DNA of 64,000 nucleotides from Dictyostelium discoideum (taxonomy: Eukaryota): assembly GCA_000004695.1 (NCBI GenBank), contig CM000153.2, positions 2,624,001 through 2,688,000 on the forward strand, given 5' to 3'. Of the stretch, positions 2,567 through 41,078 are shown in pieces. Below the pieces are notes generated by a model. That model ran no database searches. It was not told the DNA's origin and saw only the letters and a list, made by a program, of their open reading frames with translations. The position numbers and the translations under genes are program-made. Position 1 is the stretch's first letter. Each line of letters begins with the position of its first letter.

Positions 2567-2850
2567 AATTAAAATATGTTTTCGTCATCAAAATAAAAAA
2601 AAAAAAAAAAAAAAAATGAAGATTTTTTTTTTTTTCAAAAAAAATAAAAATAAAAAAAAAAAATTAAAATAAAAAAATAAATAAAAAAAAGCGATAGCGA
2701 AAATAAAATAACATTTTTGCAAACCATAAATAAAAAACAAATAAAAAAATATATTAAAAAATGTTTTTTATTTAATTTTTTTTTTTTTTAATTATAATTT
2801 TATCTTTTCCTATTTCTATTTATTATTATTTTTTTTTAAAAAATAATAAC

Positions 2851-4237: not shown

Positions 4238-5073
4238 ATGAAATTAAAAATTAATATTAGACCAAACGAAATAATATTTTTAATTTGTATAGTTGTAATA
4301 TTTTCATTTTCATATACATTAACATATTTTGATAGTCCAATTTTTAAAGAACATTATATTACAAACAATGGTAATGATTTTGGAGTTGAAAATCATTTTG
4401 TAACTTATCATTCAACTTACAAAGAAGATATTCACAAAAGAATAATTGACCCACACCATGGATTAATTCAAGAGATTACAAAAACATTTTATCCAGTTTC
4501 TTCTCCACTTGAAAAATTATTTTCATTCTCTGATAATATTTTAATTGTTCTCATAATAGTTCAAGTAATAGTTGGTTTCTTAATATTTTTATTATCTGTT
4601 GAAAAATTAAGTAAATGCAATTATCAATTAAAATCAATATTTTCAACAAAATCAACATTTTATATAAATAATAATAATAATAATAATAATGAAGATATAA
4701 ATAATAATAATAACAATAATAATAATAATAATAATAAAAATAAAAATGATGAACGTAATAATGAAGAAATTGAAGATGAAGAAACAATTAGAAAAGAAAA
4801 AATATTAATTATTAAGAAAAAAAGAGATATTTTATTAGCAATAATTATATTCTTTTTAGTATTGTTAGGAGTTTTAACAATTATTTATGTTTCATTTATA
4901 CCATTAAATATTAGAAAAGCATTCATTGGACAACAATTTTATTATAAAGGTTCAATCGATCCATTATGTGCTGACATATCAAATGAAGGTGATCATCACA
5001 TTGGTAAATGTAAATCATTAAATGGTAGAATTGGTAATGTTAATGATAAAATTGTAAATATTGATTTTTTTAT

Positions 5074-7797: not shown

Positions 7798-13863
<6,066 letters not shown>

Positions 13864-22441: not shown

Positions 22442-23519
22442 CTAATTTAAATAATCCTTTATTAAATCCATTGATTGTTGATAAAGTTGTTTTCCAATTT
22501 CTTTATTATAAGAAAGTGAGCTTGAATTTATGATTTTAGTATCATCAAAGTATTTTCCAGATATTGATTGATATTGATTTTCTATAGCACATTTAACGAT
22601 TGCTCTTGCACAATATTCAGCAGATTTAAAAATTTTATGATATAAACGATCCAATGGAAAAGGTAAATTAACGATTTCACTTGCGAAAATACCTGGATGA
22701 ATTGCATTTATTGTTGCTTTATTTGTAATATTTTCATTTTCAACACTATTAATTAAACTATCCAAATAATAGGTTGAATAAATTTGAGCCAATTTACTTT
22801 GACAATAAGTTTGAAAAGTATATGATGTATCATTAATTAAATTTTCTAATGAAAATCCACCCAATGAATGAACTGATGATGAAATATTTAAGATACGTGC
22901 TTGATTTTCCATTAAATTTTTAAATAATAATTGAGTCAATAAGAAATGACCTAAATAATTAGCCAAAAATTGAGTATTGAATTGATTTCCACCATTTTTT
23001 GTGATTGGATTATTCCATTTTTTATCTTCCCATAACCACATAATACCTGCATTATTAATGAGTATATCACATTTTAATTTTTTAATATTTTGAAATTGAT
23101 TAACAAACTCTTTAATACTACCAAGTGAAAGTAAATCTAATTTCATAAATTCTAATTTATCATTTTCACAATTTGAAAATTCAAATACTTCTTTAATTGC
23201 TTCCTTTGCTTTCAATTCATTTCTACAAGCAAAAATAATATGTGCTCCTAATTTTCCAATCTTTTTTGCAATTTCTTTACCTAATCCTGCATTTGAACCT
23301 GTAATAATTACAACTTTACCTTTTAAATCATATTTATCATATTCCTTTTTTTTTTTTTAAAAAAAAAAAAAACAATAATTAATTAATTTTCCAATTTATT
23401 TCAATTATTGATAAATAAAATAAAATAATTACAATATCTTTAGTTGGAGCAAATAAACCCATACCAAAATAAAAAATTATAGTAATTAAAATTACTAATA
23501 AAATAATAATATAATACAT
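22442..23519 (-). CDS. Short-chain dehydrogenase/reductase with an N-terminal membrane anchor, 2 exons
   Basis: Exon 1 is 23433..23519 (MYYIIILLVILITIIFYFGMGLFAPTKDI, donor GTAATT). Exon 2 is 22442..23344 (EYDKYDLKGKVVIITGSNAGLGKEIAKKIGKLGAHIIFACRNELKAKEAIKEV....NISSSVHSLGG...YCQSKLAQ...). It has the Rossmann TGxxxGxG motif (TGSNAGLG) and the catalytic YxxxK (YCQSK). The track ORF starts at an internal non-ATG position; the coding frame is open further upstream. Confidence 0.8.
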
Positions 23520-23550
23520 GTATTAAATTAAAAGAAAACACTTGTTTGAT

Positions 23551-23592
<42 letters not shown>

Positions 23593-23597
23593 AAAAA

Positions 23598-23642
<45 letters not shown>

Positions 23643-24205
23643 AAAAAATTAAAAAAAACTTTCTAAACAGTATTGATTTAATAAATAAAAAAAAAAGATA
23701 TTTAACAAAACAAAATAAAGAAATAAATTATTCATATATCTCAAATAAAACAAATACTAAAGTTGATAGATATTATTATTATCTTGAAAAAAAGAATATT
23801 CTTTTACTAAATTTCCAAAAACACTCAAAAATATGGGATCAACAATTACCTCACTTTTGGATATTTTCAAAAAAAAAAAAAAAATTTTTTTACGAAAAAC
23901 AAAAATAAAAAAAAAAAAACATTATGCGAAAATTTGAGACAATAACTTTTTTTTTTATTATTTTTTTTTTTTTTTTCATAATCAATTTTTTATTTACTAT
24001 TTTCCTTTTTTTTTTTTTTTTTTTATTTTCTTTTTTTTATACATGTAAATAAAATAAATAATAAATAATAAATAATAATAATAGTAATAATAATAATAAT
24101 AGTAATAATAATAATAATAATAAATATCAAATATATAACTATATATAATTTTTTTAAATAAAAAAAAAAATAAAATAAAATAAAATAAAAATAAAATAAA
24201 TAAAA

Positions 24206-25720
24206 ATGAAAATTAAAATATTATTGATTTTAATATTAAATTTAATATTTTTAAATTCGGTTGTAAATTCGCAATATGCTAGAAATTATTATGTTGCAAC
24301 CAATGGTACAGATTTTAATTCTTGTGGACAAGCAATATCACAAGCATGTGCAACACCAGTTGGTGCAGTGAATTCATTTAGAATTCAATTTGGTTATTAT
24401 TCAAGTAATGTTTATCAATTGTTAGTAAACTTTGGAAGTGGATATCAATGGAATGGTGGAAATTCATTAACATCAGTCTCTCTCAACAATTTAAATGTTA
24501 GCTTTATCGGTGCACCAGATGGATCTACATACTTTTATAATAGTTATTCCGCTTTACCATTATTTAATATAACAAGTGCAGCAACTCAAACAACCTATAT
24601 CACCTTCACCAATATTACTTATGGTACACCAAATTTTGGTTGTTATCATAATTATCAATATAATACACTCGCCGCATCATTATTATTAATTACACCAGCT
24701 TATTATTATTCAGTAAATAACTATATCCTATTCAATAATTTTACCATTAGTTGTAAAACCATTGACATCCCAATTGTGGCTACCAATGGTTATGGTTATA
24801 CTTATTTAGGACCAGCCTCAGAAGATTATAATGATTATTTCACTGGTTCCCTTTCATCCTATAACCCAAACACTTTCATAACATTCAATGGCATGTATTT
24901 CAACCAAACAGCAGCCTATTCGAAAGCTGGATATACTTTTTCATTCAGTTCACAACTTGTAAACGTTCCATTATTCCCAACAAGTGTTTCATTTGTAAAT
25001 TGTGTTTTGATTTTGGATGATGTTAATTTCTTATCAACTCAATCATTTATCAATGTTGGTCGTGGTAATTTAATCATTGATAATTCCACTTTCATCGTTT
25101 CATCATTTTCTAGCAATCCCCCACCATTCTTGAATGTTACATCTGCTCAAGTCGATATCACCAATTCAAATATAATAACCGAAGGTTATATGATTAGCTT
25201 CTTATCATGTCAAGGTTGTTTCTTTAAAGCTGACAATATCAACTATACTTCATTAAGTATAACAAGCTCCTCCGTACCATTTAGTTTCATGTATGCTTCT
25301 GCCTCTTTCTATAATTCTCGTTTAATTTCCTCTCAATACGGCGGTGTCATTAGTGCCGTTGATTCTCAACTCGCCTTAAGATCCAATATAATTTCTTCTG
25401 GAAAAACAAATTCTGTCAATCTTGATAAATCCAACGCATTCATTTATGGAAATACTTTCCCCTATTATTACAAGGTAAATTCATTATATTACAATTCATA
25501 TTCAACTGTAGTCTATTGTTCCTCTGATTCTGAATCTGATATCGTCGGTGATTTTTTAGTTGGTTCTTACACTGAAAATTGTTCAAAATATACTAAAGAC
25601 TTTAAATTAAAATGGTATTTTGGTTTCCTTGCTGTTGGTATTGTTGGTACACTTTTTATTTACATTTTCCTTGCTTCAACAATTGCTATAATTAAAAGAT
25701 GTGGAGGTGGTGATAATTAA
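24206..25720 (+). CDS. Type I membrane glycoprotein (504 aa) with a beta-helix-like ectodomain; paralogue of 20494..22026
   Basis: Signal peptide MKIKILLILILNLIFLNSVVNSQ, near-identical to that of the divergent neighbour. YYVATNGTDFNSCGQAISQACATPVGAVNSF cap motif; numerous N-glycosylation sites; C-terminal TM FGFLAVGIVGTLFIYIFLASTIAII. Confidence 0.6.
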   Translation: MKIKILLILILNLIFLNSVVNSQYARNYYVATNGTDFNSCGQAISQACATPVGAVNSFRIQFGYYSSNVYQLLVNFGSGYQWNGGNSLTSVSLNNLNVSFIGAPDGSTYFYNSYSALPLFNITSAATQTTYITFTNITYGTPNFGCYHNYQYNTLAASLLLITPAYYYSVNNYILFNNFTISCKTIDIPIVATNGYGYTYLGPASEDYNDYFTGSLSSYNPNTFITFNGMYFNQTAAYSKAGYTFSFSSQLVNVPLFPTSVSFVNCVLILDDVNFLSTQSFINVGRGNLIIDNSTFIVSSFSSNPPPFLNVTSAQVDITNSNIITEGYMISFLSCQGCFFKADNINYTSLSITSSSVPFSFMYASASFYNSRLISSQYGGVISAVDSQLALRSNIISSGKTNSVNLDKSNAFIYGNTFPYYYKVNSLYYNSYSTVVYCSSDSESDIVGDFLVGSYTENCSKYTKDFKLKWYFGFLAVGIVGTLFIYIFLASTIAIIKRCGGGDN

Positions 25721-25919
25721 TTATTAATTAAAAATAATTAAGAAAAAAAAAAAAAAAAAAAAAAATATAAATATTTATATTTTTAAATATAATTATTAAA
25801 AAAAAATTTAAAATAAAAAACTAAAATTTTGTAAAAATAAAAAAAAGATAAAATAAAAAAATTAAAAAATATTAATTCATCACTTTCTTTTATTTTTTTT
25901 TTATTATTTTTTTTTTTTT

Positions 25920-27674
25920 TTAAACTCTTTTAATTAATTTCAATGAATATTCAGTTGGTCTTACACTAACACTTAAAATTAGATTTTCTGGTAATGGTAA
26001 ACAATCAATGGAGAACATTCGATAATTTAATATTAAATTTGAAAGAAATATATGAATTTGATTCATTGCAATTGTTTGGCCAATACAATTTCTTGGTCCA
26101 ATTCCAAAGTTTAAAGTATCTGAAACTTTTGAATTTAAAAATCTATCTGGTTTAAATTCATTTGGATCTTTATAATTATTTTCATCTAAAGAAAACCCTT
26201 TAACATCCATCAAAATATTAGTATTTGCAGGAATATAATATTTATTATCACCAATTATCATTTCATTTATTGATTTTCTGAAAAAAAAATTATTATTAGA
26301 TTTTTAATATTAAATTATAATTTAATTATAATTATAATTACCTTGGTAGTGATAATGGTGCAATTGGCTTTTTTTTTTTTTTTTTTTTTTGTATAAATAA
26401 AAGTTTAATATTAGAAAAATAAATATTCCTTTTTTTTTTTTTTTTTTTAAAATTTTTATAAAAATACATACATATAATCTATTAGTTTCTTTTATAAATG
26501 AATTAAGAAATGGAGTATTGATTTTATCATTTGCAGTTATTTCTGATTTATTTAATTTTTTTAATTCTTGGAAAATAAGTTCTTGAAATTCTGGATTATT
26601 TACTAATTTTAAAATAATCCATTCTATAGTAGAACCGGTTGTATCTGTACCTGCCATTAAAAAATCAATACATATACTTTTAATATTTTCAATTTGTTTT
26701 TCATTTAAACCATTTTCATCTTCATTGATTGTCATAATTAAAGAATCTAATAAATCATTTGCTTTAAAATCATCACTTGTGAAATCAATTTCTTTAATTC
26801 TACTATTAAATTTTTCAGTGGCAATTTTTGAAAGAAAAGAATTTTTATCTAAAATTTTTGTAAATTTTAATAAAATTGGTTGAAAAATTCCAAGAAAGTC
26901 ATAAATTACATTATATACATTTAATGAATTTAATAAATTTAATATTGTTTTAAATATTAATTTGAATTCTGTTGAATCTGAATATAATTGAAATGATTTA
27001 TTTTCATTAAAAATCATTTTAAACATTACTGTTAATGTTAAACTTTGAAAATAAAATCTTGTATTATTAATAATAATTGATTTATTTCCATCATCATCAT
27101 CATCTTCTTCTTCTTCATTTTTTATACCATTTTTTTCAAAGAAATTAAAAAGTTCCTTTGATTTTAATAGAATGAAGTCATTCATATCCTTATTTAATAC
27201 TTTTTTATATGATTTCATAATTAATTCTTTATTGCTATCCCAAATATCACCATTACAACCTATAATTCCACGACTATCATCTCCTGTCATTGTTTTAAAT
27301 GTTGCGATTCTATTTTTAAAATTTTCAAAATTTTCAATATACATCTCTCTAATTAATTTATAATCACTAACTACAACATAGTACGTCCCTCCGAGCCACA
27401 TTCTAAATATTCCATGATATTTTTTACTAATAATAGGTATAGTTAAATGTGCATCCTTTCCAACCTGGTGAATGTTTCCTAAAATTGGTACTGGTGTAGG
27501 TCCTGATAAACTTAATGAATTTTGATTATCTGCTTTATAATACTATTTTTTTTATTAATACTAATTTTCTTTTCTTTTTTTTTTTTTTTTATATATAATT
27601 TTATTTTATTTTATAATTACTTTAACCGAGTAATAAAATAATATTAAAAAAAAAATGAAAAGAAGTAAATCCAT
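25920..27674 (-). CDS. Cytochrome P450 monooxygenase (~502 aa), 4 exons
   Basis: Exon 1 is 27621..27674 (MDLLLFIFFLILFYYSVK, donor GTAATT). Exon 2 is 26472..27542 (YYKADNQNSLSLSGPTPVPILGNIH...AGTDTTGSTIEW...FIKETNRLY, donor GTATGT). Exon 3 is a 26-nt mini-exon, 26342..26367 (PIAPLSLP+AG, donor GTAATT). Exon 4 is 25920..26277 (RKSINEMIIGDNKYYIP...FGIGPRNCIGQTIAMNQIHIFL...*). P450 signatures: proline-rich hinge, I-helix AGxDTT, ExxR, PxRF-like, and the heme loop FGxGxRxCxG. Confidence 0.85.
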
Positions 27675-27888
27675 TTTTTTAAAATTTTATTGTTTTTGTT
27701 ATAAAAATTTGGATAATGAATTTTTTTTTTTTTTTATACGAATAATAACAATAGAAATAAAAAAAAATTATTTTATATTGTTTTTTTTTATATTAAAATA
27801 ATAATAAAAATTATTTGATATTGTTTTATTTTTTTATTATAATGATAATTAATAAAAAATTAAAGTATAATAAAATAAATAATAACAA

Positions 27889-27951
<63 letters not shown>

Positions 27952-28370
27952 TTATTTGATATGTTTTTTTTTTTTATTGTAATTAATAATAAAAAAAAAA
28001 AAATAAAAAAAATGTTTCAAAAAATATCTATTAAGTTCATTAAAATAAGTTTTGGGCTTAATTAAGAAAAAAAAAATATTAATAAATTTAAATCAATTAA
28101 AATGTATAAGAAATAAAATTTAATTTTTTTAAATATATTATTATTTTTAATTATAATTGAATTATATTTATTTATTTTGAATTTTCCTGAGAAATTTTGA
28201 CTTTTTGACTTTTTTTTTTTTTTTTACGCTTTTTAATCTTTTTTTTTTTTTTTTTTTATTTCTTCAATTTATTTATTAAACCTGGATTTCGAACTTTCAT
28301 CTTTTGAGGTGGGATGAGGGACATAATTAATAATAATAATAATTTAAAAAATTTAATTTATTTAAAATTA

Positions 28371-28406
<36 letters not shown>

Positions 28407-28916
28407 AAAAAAAGAATAAAGTTATTTGAGATATTATAAAATAATAGTAAAAAAAAGAAAATATTAAAATTTTTTTGAAATATTCAATGGTATCTTTTTT
28501 AAATCACGTGCTTTATTGTTATAAAATAAAATTAGGAAAATAATAACGTGATTTTGATACAAAATAATTTAATTTTATTGATCGTTTATTATTATTTTTT
28601 TATATTTTAATATTTTATATCATTTAATTTTTTTTATTTTTCTTCAATTTGAAACAAATATTAACAAAAAGAAAAAATCTCAACATTATTAAATTGTTTG
28701 GGTCCACGATATAATATAATATGAAAAAAAAAAAAATATGAATTTGCTTTTTGAATTAAAAAATTATAAAAAAATTAAAATAACACTAATTTTTTATGTT
28801 GCTTTGTATTGAATAAAAAAAAAAAAAAAAAACATAATAACTTTTAAAATAAATTTTATATTTATATTAATATTTCGACTCAATGATGAGTATTTTATTT
28901 TTAAATAGTTTTACAA

Positions 28917-29325
28917 TTATTCTTCTTCTTCTGGAGCATCACCACGCTATTAGAATTAAAAAAAAGAAAAAGTAAAAGAAAAATGAAAAACAGGTTAGTA
29001 ATGGAACATATTTAAAGATAAATTCAAAAATACAGAGAAAACACATACGTATGGTGGTGGTGGTGGTGGTGGTGGGAGACCATTCCATGTTACATTGTTA
29101 TTTCCAAAGGAAATACCAGTGGATGATTTGGAGGAAACCTTGGTGGCACTTGATTTACCGGCACCAAATGAGAGTTTGGTTAAAGCGTCTAAAAAAAAAT
29201 TAATTTTTATAATTAAAATGTTAGCAATTATTTATTTATTTATTTATTTATTTTGTTGGAAGTTATTTTAATTTAATTTTAATTTTCGTCGTTTAAAAAA
29301 TATATAAATATTTACCAATTAACAT
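28917..29325 (-). CDS. Copy A of a 4-copy small gene: 59-aa Gly/Ser-rich protein ending LPPPPPPPPY-RGDAPEEEE; 3 exons with a 10-nt first exon
   Basis: Minus strand: exon 1 29316..29325 (ATGTTAATTG|gtaaat); exon 2 29049..29188 (ACGCTTTAACC...CCATAC|gtatgt); exon 3 28917..28946 (CGTGGTGATGCTCCAGAAGAAGAAGAATAA). Protein: MLIDALTKLSFGAGKSSATKVSSKSSTGISFGNNNVTWNGLPPPPPPPPYRGDAPEEEE. The coding sequence is conserved across the four copies while introns and flanks diverge. Confidence 0.65.
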
Positions 29326-29538
29326 TTTTATTTATTTATATATTTTGTGGTTTTTGATAATATTTTTAAAATTATATTAAAAGATAGAAAGTATTTTTAC
29401 AAATAGAAATAATAGTAGTATTGGTACAAATTGTTGTTTGAAATGATTAAAAAAATAAAAAAAAATTTCATTTTTATACTTTTTTTTTAAGTGTTTGTTT
29501 TTTTTTTTCAATCATTTTCCTCGAAGAAGATATTAATT

Positions 29539-29570
<32 letters not shown>

Positions 29571-29850
29571 TTTTTTTTTGTCAAAACCAATATTTGCACG
29601 TTCAAATTGATTTTAAATTTATTTTTTTTTAATATTTAGCTTGTCCAAAGATATTATTTTTTGTTCGCGACATTTAATCTTTGCAAAAAAAAAAAATTAT
29701 TCAAATTTTCAAATAAAAAAATTAATAAAAAAAAGGTTGTATTTTGATTGAAAAATGAAAATGGTGGAAATAAAAAATGTTTAGAATGGTTTAAATTTTT
29801 TTATTATTTTTAATTTTTTTTTTTTTTTTAATATTAATTTTTGATTTAAA

Positions 29851-29944
29851 TTAAAATTTTTTGTCCAATTAAAAAGTTGAGAAATTTGATATTTTATCAA
29901 TCATCATATCAAATTTCCCAACTTTTTAATTGGACAAAAAATTG

Positions 29945-29948
<4 letters not shown>
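29851..29948. repeat. Near-perfect inverted repeat (hairpin) with 32-bp arms and a 14-nt loop, about 540 bp upstream of small-gene copy A; half-copy at 31826..31880
   Basis: Left arm 29861..29892 ttgtccaattaaaaagttgagaaatttgatat; right arm 29907..29938 is its reverse complement with one mismatch. A/T-rich flanks extend the pairing. A related single arm plus loop (tgtccaataaaaaagttgggaaaa...tttgatattttatcaatcatcatat) lies at 31826..31880, upstream of copy B. Confidence 0.7.
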
Positions 29949-29979
<31 letters not shown>

Positions 29980-30789
29980 ATTTAAGTTTTTAGATATTTT
30001 TTAAAAGTAATCATGAAGATTTTTAAAAAAAGAGAACTTTTAAAAAATTGAAATTTGTTGTTTTTTAAAATCTTTATTATGTAAATTTATTTTTTAATAA
30101 AATTTTTGGGTTATGAAATTAAATAAATAAATACAAGAAATAATAAAAAATAAAAAATTAAAAAAAAAATTTACTTTTGATTTATAATTCTTTGATACCT
30201 GAATTCATAAAATGTTTGAAAATTTCTTTTAGAAAATTTATATATACCTCCTTGGAAACTTGGTATGAAAATCTGCACTACTCTACTATTTAATTATTAT
30301 TATTTGATTGTTTAAAAACATACTATTGTAACGTTGTTAATTATTTAAGATTTTGGAAGTTTTTTTAAAGTGAAATAATCATATTCATGAGAATAATTAA
30401 TAAATTGCAAAATCTCTTCATTTATTTTATTTCACACTATTCTTTTTCTCTTATGTATTACATTTCTATAACTTATAAGAATTGGTTCATGCTAAGAATC
30501 AATCAAAATTTTATGATTAACTTTATTCTTATGATAATGAATTAAATTCATAATTTGAGTAAGAGCAAGGATAACATTTTTTTTTATATTCAACAATTTT
30601 AAACAAATATTAAAAATTCCAAATACTACACGATGATGTGAAATCGTTTCACTCAAAAAAAAGAAAATAAAAAAAAAAAGTAAAAATAGAAAAAAATAAT
30701 GAAAATCAAAAATAGAAATAATTTTAAAATATATATTAAGTAATACATCGACTCCTTGATGAGTAGTTTATTTTTAAATAATTTAGCAA

Positions 30790-31186
30790 TTATTCTTCTT
30801 CTTCTGGAGCATCACCACGCTATTAGAATTAAAATAAAAGATAGAAAAAAAAAAGAAAGAGAGAAATGGGTTAGTAATGGAATATATTTTAAAGATAAAT
30901 TCTAAAATAGAGAGAAAACACATACGTATGGTGGTGGTGGTGGTGGTGGTGGGAGACCATTCCATGTTACATTGTTATTTCCAAAGGAAATACCAGTGGA
31001 TGATTTGGAGGAAACCTTGGTAGCACTTGATTTACCGGAACCGAATGAGAGTTTGGTTAAAGCATCTAAAAATTTAATTTTAATTATTAAAATGTTAGAA
31101 ATTATTATATTATTTATTTATTTTGTTGGTGGTTTAATTTTAATTTTCCTTGTTTAAAAAATATATAAATATTTACCAATTAACAT
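30790..31186 (-). CDS. Copy B of the same small gene (minus strand)
   Basis: Exon 1 31177..31186, exon 2 30926..31065, exon 3 30790..30819. Relative to copies A and C there are two synonymous changes and one Ala>Ser change; intron 2 and flanks are diverged with indels. The 3'UTR motif TAATTGYAAAYTATTTAAAAATAAA is shared. Confidence 0.65.
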
Positions 31187-32185
31187 TTTTATTTATTTAT
31201 ATATATTGGGGTTGTTGATAATATTTAAAAATTATATTAAAAAAAAAAATAGAAAGTATTTTTACAAGTAGAAGTAATAGTAGTATTGGTACAGATTGTT
31301 GTTTTGAAATGATTAAAAAAAAAAAAAAATTTTCATTTTTATACTTTTTTTTTTTATATCATCAAAACAAAAATTCTCAATAATATTAATTTTCTTTTTC
31401 TTTTCCCACACAAAAAATTTTTCGTCGCAAAGATATTTTTTTTTTCAAATTTTTAGACTCAACACCCTATTGGCCAAAAAATACATTCAAAGAAAGACTG
31501 CAAATGATTGATTTTATTGGACAACACAAAAATTGTTTTTTTGATCGTATCTCAGTGCTCTAACCAGATATTTCCATAAAAAAAAAAAAAAAGCAAACCA
31601 ATCCCCATCTTGTTTTTTTTTTTTTTTTTTTTAATTTTTTAATTATTTTTTTTAATTTTTTTTTTTTTTTTTTTTTTAATTTTGTTGCAAAGATTGGGTT
31701 GATAAAAAGATTTCAAAGAACAAAAATATTAAATGATTTAATTATTTTTATTTTTATTTTTCATTTTTATTTTTATTTTTATTTTTTTTTTATTTTTTTT
31801 TTTTTTGATATTAATTATTAATTTATGTCCAATAAAAAAGTTGGGAAAATATTAATTTGATATTTTATCAATCATCATATATGTTGCGAACTTTTTTTTT
31901 TTTTTTTTTTTTTTTTTATTGGATCAAGTATTTTGATATTTTTTAAAATAATCATAAATAAAACATTTTTAAATGTTCCCAATTTTCTTTTTTTTTTTTT
32001 TTTTTTTCTTTGTGATCATACTGAATAAAATTAAGTTTTATTTGGCATTCACAATGGAACTTTCAATTGAAATTTGTTGTGATTGAAAATTTTTTTTTTA
32101 AATAATTTTTTTATTTGAAAATTGTATGAATTCACACACAAAAAAAAAAATATCTTTGGACCGGATTTAAAATAATAAACAAAAG

Positions 32186-32217
<32 letters not shown>

Positions 32218-32482
32218 CTTTTCTTTTTTTTTTTTAATTTTCTTTTTTTTTCTTTATTTTTTTTTTTTATTATTTTATTTCTTTTTTTTTTCTTTCTTTT
32301 TTTTTTTTTCTTAGTAAGCCTGGGGCAAATTACAATTTGATTTTTCCCTGTCCTCTAAACCAAAAAAAAAAAAAATTTAAAAATTAATCGAACTGATTTC
32401 TCAAAATTGATTGACTTGCACAAAAAAAAATTTGCACAATAATTCACATAATCAATTTGAAGTTTCAAATATTGGGTTTTTG

Positions 32483-32517
<35 letters not shown>

Positions 32518-32765
32518 GTCCAATCGCACACGATCATTGAAAAAAAAAAAAAAAGAAAATAAAATTAAATTTTTTAAAAAAAAATATCTTCGAATTTGAA
32601 AAGAAAAATCAGCTAGAAAAAAAAAGTATAAAAATGAAAATTTTTTTTTTTTTAATCATTCCAAAACAACAATTTTACTCTGTACTATTACCTCTACAAC
32701 TATTTTTTTGTAACATTAAACTTAAATCAATTGTATATTATTTTAAAAAAAATAAATAAATAAAG

Positions 32766-33147
32766 ATGTTAATTGGTAAATATTTATATATAAAATTAAA
32801 ATAAAACTATCAACAAAATAAATAAATAAATAAATAATTGCTAACATTTTAATAATCAAAATTAAATTTTAGACGCTTTAACCAAACTCTCATTCGGTGC
32901 TGGTAAATCAAGTGCCACCAAGGTTTCCTCCAAATCATCCACTGGTATTTCCTTTGGAAATAACAATGTAACATGGAATGGTCTCCCACCACCACCACCA
33001 CCACCACCATACGTATGTGTTTTCTCTCTATTTTAGAATTTATCTTTAAAATATATTCCATTACTAACCCATTTCCCTCTTTCTTTTTTTTTCTATCTTT
33101 TATTTTAATTCTAATAGCGTGGTGATGCTCCAGAAGAAGAAGAATAA
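32766..33147 (+). CDS. Copy C of the same small gene (plus strand, inverted relative to A/B)
   Basis: Exon 1 32766..32775 (ATGTTAATTG|gtaaatattt), exon 2 32873..33012, exon 3 33118..33147. Intron 1 holds a conserved tgCTAACatttt branch-like element about 30 nt upstream of the ttttag acceptor. The track ORFs 32849..33061(-) and 30972..31157(+) are antisense or partial artefacts of these copies. Confidence 0.65.
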
Positions 33148-35078
33148 TTGTAAAATTATTTAAAAATAAAATACCCGTTATTGGGTCGATGTATTACTTA
33201 ATATATATAGGATTGGATTTGAGAGTATTCAGTTGTGTATTTATTATTATTATTGTAATTGTTTTTTTTTATTTTTTTCGAATGGAGGTGGTGCAACTCG
33301 TTTGTGATTTTTAAAATTTCTTTGAAATTATGGAAAAAATAAATAATAAAATTTCTTATTTGTTTGAATTGTAAATACAAAAAAAAAAATAAAAAAATAA
33401 ACGATTAATTAAATCTGTATAATTTAAAAATAAAAATTTTTTTTAATAAGTTAAAAATTAAGGTGATATTAAAACATTAACAACCTACAACACAGCCAAC
33501 CAAAAGCAAATCCACTCCCATTGGAGGACTATTTGGATAATAAGCAAATACACGATCAATAAAGGAGTTACTGGTAAAATTAGATCAATTGATTCATTTA
33601 GGTGGATATGTACAAAAATTTACCAACTGTGTCACAAATGGTAATACACATTGAAGGATCAAATTATGTTCAATCGGCTATTCTACCACATTATATACAA
33701 GCTACACATAAAGAAGACTTACTTTTCGATTTAGATTTAAACTATCTTTTCAATCTTGGTATAGTTACATTTGAGAGAGTGCTCGGATTGATTGAAACAT
33801 TGAACCAACAAGAACAGCAACAACAAAATAATATAGCAATAGTAGTACAAAAACAACAGGAAACAACTTTCACAATTTTAAAATAAATTAGAGAATCAAA
33901 TACCACCAACACCAAACTCATTGAATAAAATCTACTTCAATTGGTGAGGATGGTAAACCTTTGTACCGATGTAAAGATGTTGGTGGTGATACCTTTATGG
34001 TCCATTCAAAGGAACCATTTTAAATATTTTTTAGAAAAGTAAATCACCAATTTACTTTTTTTTAAAAAAAAAAAATTTAATCCAAAAAAAAAAAAAAAAA
34101 ATAAAATAAAATTGGATTACAATTCACTTTTTTATTAAAATTATCTCATATCTATTTAAAAAAAGAGTAGATATATTATCTATTTTTTTATCTATTTTTT
34201 TTTTTTTTTATGAGGTTACTTTTTTTTTTTATTTTTTTTTTTTGCATCTTCCAAATACAAAAGATATTTTTCAATTAAATAATAATTTTAATTTTTTTTA
34301 AATATCAAATTAAATAAAATTTTATTAAAATGTTTTTCATGATTCACAATTCTTGTGAACTTTCACTGGTGGAAATTTTTTTTTTTAGGCACTAAAAATC
34401 TTTTTTTAATTGAAATTTGTTGTGTTGGAATTTTTTTTTTTTTTTTTTTATATTAATTATTTTATTTGAAAATTGGATTGATTTTATTTTTAGCAAAGAT
34501 TAGATCTCGCACACAAAATAAAAATATCTTTGCGCACAATAAATTTAATTTTATTTATTTTATTAAATTTAATCCAATAAACTCACTCCCATTTAATTTA
34601 ACCTATTTTTTTTTTTTCTTTTCTTTTTTTTTTTTCTTTTTCTTTTTTTTTTTATTTTTAGTGAAAATTAGTTGGGCAAAATGATATATTTTGATTTTTC
34701 AATATCCTTCAAAACAAAAAAAAATAATTTAAAAAAAATAAAAATGATTTTAAATAAAAAAAAACTAAAATTATGATATTTCCTCATACAAAATATAGTT
34801 TCATCAATTTGTGTTTTTTTTAAAAAAAAAAAAAATAAAAAAAAACAAATTGTAAATTAATATCTTCAAGGAAAATGATTTAAAGAAAAACAAACACTTA
34901 AAAAAAAAAGTATAAAAATGAAATTTTTTTTTTTTTTTTAATCATTTCAAAACAACAATTTGTACCAATACTACTATTATTTCTATTTGTAAAAATACTT
35001 TCTATCTTTTAATATAATTTTAAATATTATCAACAACCCAAAAAAAAAATAAATAAATAAATAAATATAAAAATAAAA

Positions 35079-35474
35079 ATGTTAATTGGTAAAAATTAAT
35101 TTTTTAAATGAATAAAAATTAAAATTAAAATAAAACAATCAACAAAATAAATAATTAAATAAATAAATAAAATAATTGCTAACATTTTAATAATCAAAAT
35201 TAAATTTTAGACGCTTTAACCAAACTCTCATTCGGTGCCAGTAAATCAAGTGCTACCAAGGTTTCCTCCAAATCATCCACTGGTATTTCCTTTGGAAATA
35301 ACAATGTAACATGGAATGGTCTCCCACCACCACCACCACCACCACCATACGTATGTGTTTTCTCTCTATTTTAGAATTTATCTTTAAATATGTTCCATTA
35401 CTAACCTGTTTTTCATTTTTCTTTTTCTTTTTCTTTTTCTTTTTTAATAGCGTGATGCTCCAGAAGAAGAATAA
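35079..35474 (+). CDS. Copy D of the same small gene (plus strand); two in-frame codon deletions in the last exon
   Basis: Exon 1 35079..35088 (donor GTAAAA), exon 2 35211..35350 (Gly>Ser change), exon 3 35451..35474 (CGTGATGCTCCAGAAGAAGAATAA = RDAPEEE*, lacking one GGT and one GAA relative to copies A-C). In-frame indels and mostly synonymous substitutions indicate purifying selection. Confidence 0.6.
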
Positions 35475-35669
35475 TTGTAAACTATTTAAAAATAAATCAC
35501 TCATCACAGAGCCAATGTATTTCAAAATATATCATTTATTTTAAAAATAAAAATAACCCTTAATTGGGTATTCATTACAAAATATAATATATATATATAT
35601 AAATAATTTAATATTTTGATATTAATTTTATTATTGTTTTTTTTTTTTTTTTTTTTTATAAAGAGTTAA

Positions 35670-39221
<3,552 letters not shown>

Positions 39222-39611
39222 GGTTTTAATTTTTAAATTTTTTTTATTTTATTTTATTTTATATTTTATTTTTTAATTTTTATTTATTATTATTATTTGT
39301 TTTTTTATTTTTTTTATTATTATTATTTGTTTTTTTAATAAATAAATATATATATGTTTATATGTTTATATGTTTAAAAAAATTATTAATAAAAAAAAAA
39401 AATTATAAAATACATTTACACAAATAAATTTTTTTTTTTTTTTTTTTTTTTTATCTATTTTTTATTTTAAAAATTTTTTTTTTTTATTTTTTATTTTAAA
39501 AATTTTTTTTTTAATTTTAAATTTTGTTGTCCAAAAGTGTATGACACTTGTCCCACCCTTTTTTTTAATATTTTCCAAAAATAATTAAAATTTCAACAAC
39601 TTTTTTATTTT

Positions 39612-39642
<31 letters not shown>

Positions 39643-39857
39643 TTTTTTTTTTATCTGTTTACAAATTTCTTTATAACCCCTTTTTTTTTTTTTTTTTTTT
39701 TTTTTTACAATTTTTTAAATGTAATTTTTTTTTTTTTTTTTTTTACTTTCACTATCTATTTTAAAAACATTATACAAAATATTCATTTTTATAACTTTAT
39801 TTCTATTTTCGTAATTATCGTTTTAAAAAATCCCCCCAAAATTTCGAAACATAAATA

Positions 39858-39898
<41 letters not shown>

Positions 39899-40010
39899 AT
39901 TTTTTAGAAAAATGAAAACACTTTTCTAAATAAAAAAAATGGTTTTAAAAAATTTTTAGGTTTTTTTTTTTTTTATTTTATTAAATTTATTCACATAGTG
40001 TATTAAAACT

Positions 40011-41078
40011 ATGAAATTATTTATTTTATTAATATTATTAATAGGTGTATTATTATTTAATGGGATCAATGGTGATGAATATGTAAATTTCATACCCTAT
40101 TCAAATGATGAATGTGTAGGTGATGAAATTGGTATTGGATATTCAAGTTTATTATCAAAATGTTTACCTTCTATTGATTCTCAACAAAATTATTTATTTA
40201 CATTGAAACCAAAAAATGTAATAGAATGGAAAGTTTTCAAATATTCAAATAAAAATCACCACAATAACGATAGTTGCAATCTAAATAAAACTACCATTTT
40301 ACAACCATCATTTACAACTAAAATCGGATCATGTATTTCAAGTGAATATATTAATTTAGATTCAAAGATTTCATTATCTTCACCAACCCACTACAAAATA
40401 TCAATTACAAAGAATTCACCATATATTAGCGCAAAATCAATTGTTAATAGTTTTACATTTGATAAAAAATGTTCTTCTTCTTCAAATAATAATAATGATG
40501 ATGATGTTTTATTAATTCAATATTTTACAAATGATTTAAATGTTAAATTAAACAATAAAAATAAGATTTCATATCATTGTATAAACGATAAAGCATTTAC
40601 CAAAAATCAATTTGAATTTGTTGAACCAATAACTAAAGAATGTGTGCAATTTGGAAATGGTAATGCTAATGCTATTTCAAGTTTAATTAAAAATAAATTT
40701 GTGGATTTAAAATTTGGATTTGGAAGTGGAAGTGGGAGTGGAAGTGGAAGTAGTGGTGGTGAAGATTCAAGTAGTACTACTGGTAATACTGGTGATTCAA
40801 GTACTGGAAATACTGGTGAATCATCAATATCATCAAGTACAGGTGGTAATAGTGATACTTCAGGTGGTAATAGTGGTTTTTCAAGTGATACCTCAGGTGG
40901 TAATAGTGGTTTTTCAAGTACAACCGAGGTTACAACTGCTACCTCTGCAACTACTGGTGGCGCAACAAGTGGTGATGATAATGATGGAACTGGTGCAACC
41001 AATTTCATTGATTATAAACTTCCAAATCCATCACCTACCCATCACAAAATTTTTAAAAAAACATATTGTTCCAAATAA
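40011..41078 (+). CDS. Secreted/surface Ser-Gly-Thr-rich mucin-like protein (355 aa)
   Basis: Signal peptide MKLFILLILLIGVLLFNGINGDEY. The Cys-containing N-terminal domain is followed by GSGSGSGSGSSGG and tandem SGGNSGFSSDTSGGNSGFSS repeats. The overlapping track ORFs 40607..41008(-) and 40714..41100(+) are repeat-driven artefacts. Confidence 0.55.
   Translation: MKLFILLILLIGVLLFNGINGDEYVNFIPYSNDECVGDEIGIGYSSLLSKCLPSIDSQQNYLFTLKPKNVIEWKVFKYSNKNHHNNDSCNLNKTTILQPSFTTKIGSCISSEYINLDSKISLSSPTHYKISITKNSPYISAKSIVNSFTFDKKCSSSSNNNNDDDVLLIQYFTNDLNVKLNNKNKISYHCINDKAFTKNQFEFVEPITKECVQFGNGNANAISSLIKNKFVDLKFGFGSGSGSGSGSSGGEDSSSTTGNTGDSSTGNTGESSISSSTGGNSDTSGGNSGFSSDTSGGNSGFSSTTEVTTATSATTGGATSGDDNDGTGATNFIDYKLPNPSPTHHKIFKKTYCSK

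Follow-up and report, generated by a model that had tools for sequence, protein, structure and literature searches.

Four tiny three-exon genes, designated A to D, are present in a stretch of 64,000 nucleotides (nt) of Dictyostelium discoideum chromosome 4 (assembly GCA_000004695.1, contig CM000153.2, positions 2,624,001 to 2,688,000 of the forward strand; referred to below as the window). They are paralogous copies of a Dictyostelium-restricted micro-protein gene, each with its own putative promoter, two canonical introns and a product of 57-59 amino acids (aa). It is very probable that all four are real protein-coding genes, because relatives in other species read through at the predicted splice junctions and because the ratio of nonsynonymous to synonymous substitution rates (dN/dS) between species is 0.17-0.27. 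The quartet is a rediscovery of hypothetical-protein models in the reference annotation, and so is mostly ordinary. The wider family, however, provides a natural series of precise intron losses, in which both, either or neither intron is missing and by which micro-exon gene models are validated.

Gene structure and coding status

Reading of the sequence, combined with splicing and translation by regular expression, identified units A(-), B(-), C(+) and D(+) in the window (Table 1). Each consists of a 10-nt exon 1, an intron 1 of 97-127 nt, a 140-nt exon 2, an intron 2 of 100-106 nt and an exon 3 of 30 nt (24 nt in D). The 59-aa proteins of A and C are identical, and that of D carries Gly14Ser and is without Gly52 and one Glu. 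An earlier reading made from the sequence alone had described this micro-architecture at four sites, and the units and their translations are as it gave them; its coordinates were right for B, C and D, but for A it took the opposite end of exon 1, 29316, as the start, which is actually at 29325, 9 nt away. The window has a content of guanine plus cytosine (GC) of 15-31%, with long A/T homopolymers, and the 15-mer ATGTTAATTGGTAAA, which comprises exon 1 and the donor, occurs four times against 0.18 expected by chance. All eight introns are of the GT..AG type and contain a CTAAC branch-point-like box upstream of the acceptor, at a distance of 28-32 nt in intron 1 and 46-51 nt in intron 2, and no other AG intervenes between this box and the acceptor. 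The branch-point consensus is yUnAy/UACUAAC and, because of the position of the CTAAC box before the first AG, the conserved intron element tgCTAACatttt is best read as the branch point. The GC content of the exons is 43-44%, in contrast to 8-22% for the introns.

Differences between the copies are concentrated outside the exons, as had been proposed. Introns differ by 1-23%, plus indels, compared with 1.4-2.9% for exon 2. Only six exon sites vary among the four copies, four of them synonymous and two nonsynonymous (both Ala/Gly>Ser), and two whole codons are deleted in D; within D. discoideum this synonymous enrichment (4 vs 2 sites) has a Fisher p of 0.03.

Each of the four products is identical to a hypothetical protein annotated on chromosome 4 of D. 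discoideum AX4. A and C correspond to DDB_G0285043 and DDB_G0284927 (the identical 59-aa proteins), B to DDB_G0284925 and D to the 57-aa DDB_G0284931. The supposition that gene finders miss these genes is thus contradicted by the AX4 reference annotation, in which all four models are present, and the quartet is already known rather than new. Homologues were looked for among 5.8 billion proteins by a word-indexed search and among 1.84 billion cluster representatives by an exhaustive HMMER profile search. Outside the quartet these detected only one protein of Dictyostelium citrinum (P0004), two of Dictyostelium firmibasis (P0006 and P0007) and a D. discoideum chromosome-2 paralogue, DDB_G0271770 (P0005); the remaining HMMER matches were two low-complexity sequences. 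Two scans of metagenomes, one with the spliced junction and the other with the WxGLPPPP coding pattern, gave no match. As far as these searches reach, the family is confined to D. discoideum, D. citrinum and D. firmibasis. The five D. discoideum identifiers (the quartet and DDB_G0271770) are not mentioned in the main texts of the literature searched.

For the gene models, these relatives serve as natural equivalents of transcript data. At the orthologous syntenic locus of D. citrinum (L001) there are two head-to-head copies, cit2(-)/cit1(+). The cit1 gene (L001 10001-10248) is without intron 1, reading an uninterrupted ATGTTATTCGATGCTTTAAC..., and has kept a 71-nt intron 2; cit2 (L001 7812-8133, minus strand) has kept the 10-nt exon 1, the GTAAAT donor and a TGCTAACATTT box and is without intron 2. 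The syntenic locus of D. firmibasis (L005) has three copies, fir-a(-)/fir-b(+)/P0007(+). Both fir-a (L005 2820-3077, minus) and fir-b (L005 4347-4605, plus) have the 10-nt exon 1 and intron 1 only, as does a fourth D. firmibasis gene (P0006, on L002), and P0007 (L005 6001-6174) is one unbroken open reading frame (ORF) of 174 nt with neither intron. On alignment, these absences are precise at the predicted junctions and keep the frame, by which both junctions are validated, and their pattern is what recombination with spliced complementary DNA (cDNA) would give.

In all interspecies pairs (Nei-Gojobori method) the low dN/dS is found at a synonymous divergence (dS) of 0.4-1.6, and the synonymous excess has Fisher p values from 2e-3 to 2e-6. 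Together with the lower divergence of exons than of introns, these values bear out the purifying selection on spliced coding genes that had been claimed. It could alternatively be argued that the ORF is not a functional protein, its conservation being due to very recent duplication and gene conversion, or that the functional product is an RNA. The small number of variable exon sites within D. discoideum and the evident gene conversion agree with such a possibility, as does the fact that no proteomic detection was found in the supplementary data searched. However, frame, length and 20 or more residues are kept across species at the above dS with a dN/dS of ~0.2, independent and precise intron losses keep the ORF, no Rfam family is matched and a candidate stem in the 3' untranslated region (UTR) is unsupported; an explanation without a functional protein is considered highly improbable.

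Several observations concern the annotation of the relatives. Three family copies, in D. citrinum (L001 7812-8133, -) and D. firmibasis (L005 2820-3077, -, and 4347-4605, +), are unannotated in their assemblies, likely because of the 10-nt first exon. The annotated N-terminus of DDB_G0271770, MYIFIDALTK, resembles a translated intron 3' end (...TATATTTTTATAG/AC), and the true start is probably the same 10-nt exon 1 (MLID...), in which case the annotated N-terminus is mis-modelled; an older 72-aa model of this gene also exists (P0010). In D. firmibasis, the stop codons are followed, at L005 ~2750-2830 (-) and ~4600-4680 (+), by a remnant similar to exon 3 of D. discoideum and the beginning of its 3'UTR, with the sequences GGTGAT...CCAGAGAAGAATAATTGTAA and AATAATAG/AAGAAGAATAATTGTA, which suggests that turnover of the C-terminal tail is tied to gain or loss of intron 2.

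The conserved core and its putative proline motif

Eleven sequences (the four window copies, the chromosome-2 paralogue, two from D. citrinum and four from D. firmibasis) can be aligned unambiguously, and all length differences between them are whole codons. The invariant residues are D4 A5 L6 T7 K8, S10, K15, I29, F31 G32, N34, W38, G40 L41 P42-45, P48-49 and R51, giving a core pattern of DALTK-S...I-FG-N...W-x-G-L-PPPP-xx-PP-x-R. AlphaFold2 places a helix at residues 2-10 only, with a mean predicted local distance difference test (pLDDT) score of 65, so that most of the product, apart from this short N-terminal helix, is predicted to be disordered.

On the earlier reading, the C-terminal PPPY was a PPxY motif through which WW-domain proteins or Nedd4-type HECT ligases could be recruited, helped by the acidic tail. 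PPxY late-domain and Nedd4-adaptor motifs are WW class I ligands, and the four chromosome-4 copies do literally contain PPPY, each reading PPPPPPPPY followed by R(G)DAPEEE. The Tyr is, however, restricted to these four copies. It is replaced by K in 2/2 D. citrinum sequences, by W in 4/4 D. firmibasis sequences and by M in the chromosome-2 paralogue, while L41, P42-45, P48-49 and R51 are the same in all members. Variation of the Tyr despite clear purifying selection is a strong argument against a PPxY-dependent function; a role as WW-domain ligand is disfavoured, since the Tyr is not kept in any orthologue or paralogue, and it is regarded as very unlikely.

Class I EVH1 motifs have the form [FLWY]PPPP, and profilin-type ligands are poly-proline tracks. 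The invariant core of the family seems to fit an EVH1/WH1-type [FL]PPPP or profilin-type motif better than PPxY. GLPPPP is present in 11/11 sequences, and a run of 8-9 prolines in 10/11, so that the family shares with EVH1 class I ligands, and with the poly-proline tracks of formin FH1 domains, an invariant hydrophobic residue followed by PPPP; acidic residues are also found downstream in D. discoideum and D. citrinum. In a comparison of the family profile with the PDB, the sole motif-level match was to 7lxe, the Abi1 ligand peptide with the ENAH EVH1 domain, in which NVTWdGLPPPPPPPPk aligns with GSGFDDFPPPPPPPPV (motif FDDFPPPPPPPPV) at a non-significant E of 0.09. A candidate class II SH3 motif, PxxPxR, is present in 10 of the 11 sequences (as PPPP-x-R), and in the chromosome-2 paralogue, PPPPAIPPMR, the first Pro of the motif is Ala. 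The likeness to EVH1 ligands is nevertheless that of a short linear motif and, unlike in EVH1-binding and formin scaffolds, the motif here makes up about one-fifth of a free-standing micro-protein and is not one module of a large scaffold. From this comparison, the product could bind a proline-recognition module as a small proline-motif ligand or compete for it; a disordered LPPPP/poly-proline ligand of this kind is the best proposal for its mechanism, but a tentative and somewhat doubtful one. Should the WxGLPPPP..PPxR core serve for docking, proline-recognition domains would be modulated in a simple way by these ~6-kDa proteins during early development.

Other similarities were rejected. Pfam matches to PRIMA1, androgen receptor and Mito_fiss_reg are poly-proline artefacts, and those to PRIMA1 survive shuffling of the N-terminus. 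A profile match to the FNIP-like protein Crov588 (6nyr) has a summed E of 3e-7, but no single repeat exceeds 6.6 bits and no family member matches any Pfam FNIP model; it is treated as a short similarity, LTxLxFG, whose score is raised by the presence of 11 repeats.

Relation to the HssA/2C/7E genes and expression

The closest parallel to the gene structure is found in the HssA/2C/7E (SigN) family. Ninety-six genes of this family have been described by Vicente et al. in 2008, with an exon-1 ORF of 13 nt in 89/96 and of 10 nt in three, and with inverted pairs (PMC2257962). The quartet is not among these 96 genes, since no 10//140//30 exon structure is listed in Additional file 1 of that study (PMC2257962). 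In the HssA genes of Dictyostelium purpureum and Dictyostelium dimigraforme, a 13-nt exon-1 ORF is followed by a phase-1 intron in codon 5. Exon 1 of one D. purpureum HssA gene, ATGACATTAATTG/GTAAATAT (donor GTAAAT), differs from that of the quartet, ATGTTAATTG/GTAAATAT, solely by a Thr codon. Both families consist of tiny Dictyostelium-only genes with a first-exon ORF of 10-13 nt, a phase-1 intron at the equivalent codon with donor G/GTAAAT, and a Ser/Lys-rich N-terminal third (xxSxG..KSS). Both have been amplified locally as head-to-head pairs, an arrangement seen in A(-) B(-) C(+) D(+), in cit2(-)/cit1(+) and in fir-a(-)/fir-b(+)/P0007(+). Because the 10-nt exon-1 ORF, the phase-1 intron and the inverted pairs match HssA/2C/7E, the quartet is probably an offshoot of that family, in which the Gly/Cys-rich half would have been replaced by poly-proline and a charged tail. 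The common 10/13-nt first exon and phase-1 intron also suggest that HssA/2C/7E may have unrecognised offshoots with other C-terminal halves.

Similarity at the protein level is confined to the N-terminus. Against PF05710 ('Coiled', HssA/2C/7E; gathering cut-off 21.4 bits), sub-threshold matches were obtained for three of eight full-length members (cit1, E 0.012; cit2, 0.017; P0006, 0.08-0.16), in contrast to 70-83 bits over the whole model for bona fide HssA proteins of D. purpureum and D. dimigraforme. The matches are always collinear from the N-terminus, none of ten N-terminal shuffles gave one, and residue 4 of the family is paired with model position 5, so that the phase-1 intron interrupts the same codon in both families (codon 4 in the quartet). 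The family differs from HssA in several respects. The quartet proteins are 57-59 aa long and HssA proteins ~85-100 aa; the D. discoideum copies have a second intron; and the family has no Cys, its C-terminal half being WxGL(P)8xR plus a charged tail and not the Gly/Cys/Ser-rich NSIQCG...GCN.

In the tables searched, expression data were found for the chromosome-2 paralogue only. In two replicates, the reads for DDB_G0271770 rose from 67/113 at 0 h to 1984/2980 at 4 h and then fell to 40/55 at 8 h and to ≤25 thereafter; developing cells gave 189/179 in the wild type and 16/17 in an rblA mutant, about 10-fold lower (Table S2, PMC3386910). The chromosome-2 paralogue is thus expressed in a sharp, RblA-dependent pulse at 4 h. 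A developmentally regulated, RblA-dependent paralogue is a further likeness to HssA/2C/7E, although sigN genes are expressed from 10-12 h. The quartet is probably made in a similar short pulse early in development.

These parallels have also to be weighed as support for another function, in which the family would be divergent HssA/2C/7E-type developmental small proteins acting as proposed for SigN, that is, as secreted or matrix/adhesion-associated structural peptides whose poly-proline forms a rigid polyproline II (PPII) spacer and not a docking motif. In common with such proteins, the family has the micro-exon, the phase-1 intron, the inverted-pair architecture and the sub-threshold PF05710 matches, and many HssA relatives are activated by RblA in development, as is DDB_G0271770. 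By inspection, however, the N-terminus MLIDALTKLSFGAGK is unlike a signal peptide, since D and K occur in it and a hydrophobic core of the required length is missing. The defining Cys/Gly-rich half is absent, the profile-profile comparison described below is negative, and the paralogue peaks at 4 h, in contrast to the induction of sigN at 10-12 h (PMC2257962). A SigN-like structural role is judged unlikely.

The explanation preferred here combines HssA-type descent, a proline-motif product and an early pulse of expression with the amplification of the locus described in the next section, and a number of findings weigh against it. The best PF05710 score was obtained with the first 39 aa of cit1, the tail being removed; at 18.2 bits (E 0.0045) it is below the gathering cut-off, and the D. 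discoideum copies do not match PF05710. Alignment of the family with a five-sequence HssA alignment by hhalign gave nothing (probability 1%; the sequences are few and power is low), and the C-terminal halves of the two families are unrelated. With regard to the ligand, the motif is part of a (CCA)n repeat, a kind of tract that may appear and be retained without much function; D. firmibasis, moreover, has no acidic tail. The 4-h pulse is documented for the chromosome-2 paralogue only, and the four chromosome-4 copies were not found in the supplementary tables searched, including the RblA-activated list of PMC3386910. This last absence may be because near-identical sequence was non-mappable or pooled: in that study, sequence common to several genes was marked non-mappable, or the genes were pooled into 'collectives' (PMC3386910).

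Because hhalign finds nothing and the Cys/Gly-rich half is missing, membership is not assigned and the quartet family is not filed with HssA. Descent from an HssA-type gene is plausible, the chances being about evenly balanced, and the combined explanation is given a little better than an even chance of being right. It can be extended to a young family derived from an HssA-type micro-exon gene, whose product is an LPPPP/poly-proline decoy that would transiently titrate an EVH1/WH1 domain or profilin, and so actin assembly, in the first hours of starvation, with copy number (2-4 per locus) and intron content changing rapidly by gene conversion and cDNA-mediated intron loss. In that full form it is speculative and rather improbable.

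Among the HssA sequences used for comparison, the annotation of the HssA-like D. dimigraforme model P0011 (L003 10001-10727) is wrong at the 5' end, where an artificial extension has been added. The actual exon 1 reads ATGACAATTTT(T)AG, in which one extra T breaks the frame, and the head-to-head neighbour (L003 9456-9780, -) is also frameshifted; these are either homopolymer errors of the assembly or pseudogenes.

Locus history and surroundings

Coordinates of the genes, repeat units and control regions, together with predicted junctions and peptides, are given in Table 1. The repeat units, each comprising promoter, gene and 3' block, are ~0.65-0.78 kb long and 78-87% identical to one another, and the spacers have only short stretches of ~70% identity in common. 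The two tandem pairs are inverted relative to each other, as the sequence-only reading had stated, and the upstream and 3'UTR blocks that it described as common are recovered on alignment of the copies. Its ~6.5-kb quasi-palindrome was not found, because only the ~0.7-kb gene units are repeated, and a true 6.5-kb palindrome is ruled out.

Table 1. Features of the four-gene cluster (positions in the window)
Feature	Positions	Strand	Details
Gene A	28917-29325	-	59 aa; exon 1 29316-29325, intron 1 29189-29315, exon 2 29049-29188, intron 2 28947-29048, exon 3 28917-28946
Gene B	30790-31186	-	59 aa, Ala13Ser; exon 1 31177-31186, intron 1 31066-31176, exon 2 30926-31065, intron 2 30820-30925, exon 3 30790-30819
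Gene C	32766-33147	+	59 aa; exon 1 32766-32775, intron 1 32776-32872, exon 2 32873-33012, intron 2 33013-33117, exon 3 33118-33147
Gene D	35079-35474	+	57 aa; exon 1 35079-35088, intron 1 35089-35210, exon 2 35211-35350, intron 2 35351-35450, exon 3 35451-35474
Repeat unit A	28808-29571	-	blastn self/arm comparison, repeat search
Repeat unit B	30686-31356	-	blastn self/arm comparison, repeat search
Repeat unit C	32540-33254	+	blastn self/arm comparison, repeat search
Repeat unit D	34822-35549	+	blastn self/arm comparison, repeat search
Core promoter and 5'UTR of A	29326-29479	-	GTATAAAAA TATA box (G at 29479), T-run, conserved leader; alignment
Core promoter and 5'UTR of B	31187-31344	-	TATA G at 31344; alignment
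Core promoter and 5'UTR of C	32626-32765	+	TATA at 32626; leader of cit2 type, unlike A, B and D
Core promoter and 5'UTR of D	34910-35078	+	TATA at 34910; 98% identical to that of A
B-C divergent (head-to-head) intergenic region	31187-32765		~67% identity over ~800 nt to D. citrinum cit1-cit2 intergenic region; blastn
Predicted exon 1/exon 2 junction, spliced			ATGTTAATTG/ACGCTTTAACC
Predicted exon 2/exon 3 junction, spliced			CCACCATAC/CGTGGTGATGC; gene D CCACCATAC/CGTGATGC
Predicted peptides of product			tryptic SSTGISFGNNNVTWNGLPPPPPPPPYR; LSFGAGK
Predicted peptide around core			WNGLPPPPPPPPYRGDAPEEEE (includes L41, Y50 and R51)

A TATA box, a T-run and a leader are the classical layout of the Dictyostelium core promoter, and every copy has its own GTATAAAAA, T-run and conserved leader. 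The upstream region of B is orthologous to that of cit1 in D. citrinum, and that of C to that of cit2. Because the B-C intergenic region resembles the cit1-cit2 intergenic region, B and C are taken to be the ancestral divergent pair on sequence comparison, and A and D to be outer, D. discoideum-specific additions. On this view the B/C pair was amplified by addition of A and D, and the copies show a mosaic of similarities that suggests gene conversion. In the 5'UTR, A, B and D form one group (94-98% identical, cit1-like) and C stands apart (cit2-like); intron 1 is most alike in C and D; in intron 2, identity is 95% between A and D and 99% between B and C; and in the 3' block B and C are closest, with 93% identity over 125 nt by repeat search and 84% over the 70 nt that follow the stop codon. 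As no single tree fits this mosaic, we infer gene conversion among the copies, including between inverted copies.

Other elements were observed around the genes. In most family copies the TATA box is preceded, at a distance of 40-60 nt, by a ATATCTTC box; the latter is often inside a TTC...GAA dyad (GAAGATATCTTC in D. firmibasis), occurs at window positions 29500-29540, 32585-32600 and 34860-34880, at L001 ~8340 and at L002 ~9830, and may be a common regulatory site. A conserved 3'UTR hairpin (C[C/U]C-loop-G[G/A]G) was rejected as a candidate: it has one covarying pair but is equalled by 41/500 shuffles, and D. firmibasis is without it. A near-perfect hairpin with a 37-bp stem is present at 29855-29942, ~0.55 kb upstream of A (DNA fold -34.7 kcal/mol, z = -10), in which an arm containing CCAAT (TGTCCAATTAAAAAGTTGRGAAA) surrounds a GATATTTTATCAATCATCATAT core. 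The core and a single arm are also found upstream of B (partial copy, 31822-31890) and in the orthologous intergenic region of D. citrinum (L001 ~9255-9390), and the hairpin may be a conserved cis-element that has become palindromic upstream of A. A search of Rfam over 27500-36500 gave no match beyond a chance microRNA-like score on a hairpin, and there are no tRNA genes in the window.

Between C and D there is a GC-richer island (33480-34020; ORF 33602-33886, +), which encodes DDB_G0284929, annotated as a hypothetical protein of 82 aa. On four short Logan contigs it has been called with 92 aa; the protein has no Pfam match and no clear counterpart at the D. citrinum or D. firmibasis loci. The flanks of the cluster (22442-27401 and 35670-41078) contain a short-chain dehydrogenase, a cytochrome P450, an 1183-aa ORF without Pfam match and a CfaA/B/C counting-factor-associated protein. 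The flanking gene order is the same in D. citrinum and partly so in D. firmibasis, the arrangement CfaA - large ORF - cluster - p450 - adh_short being common to the three species, and the cluster therefore sits inside a conserved syntenic block.

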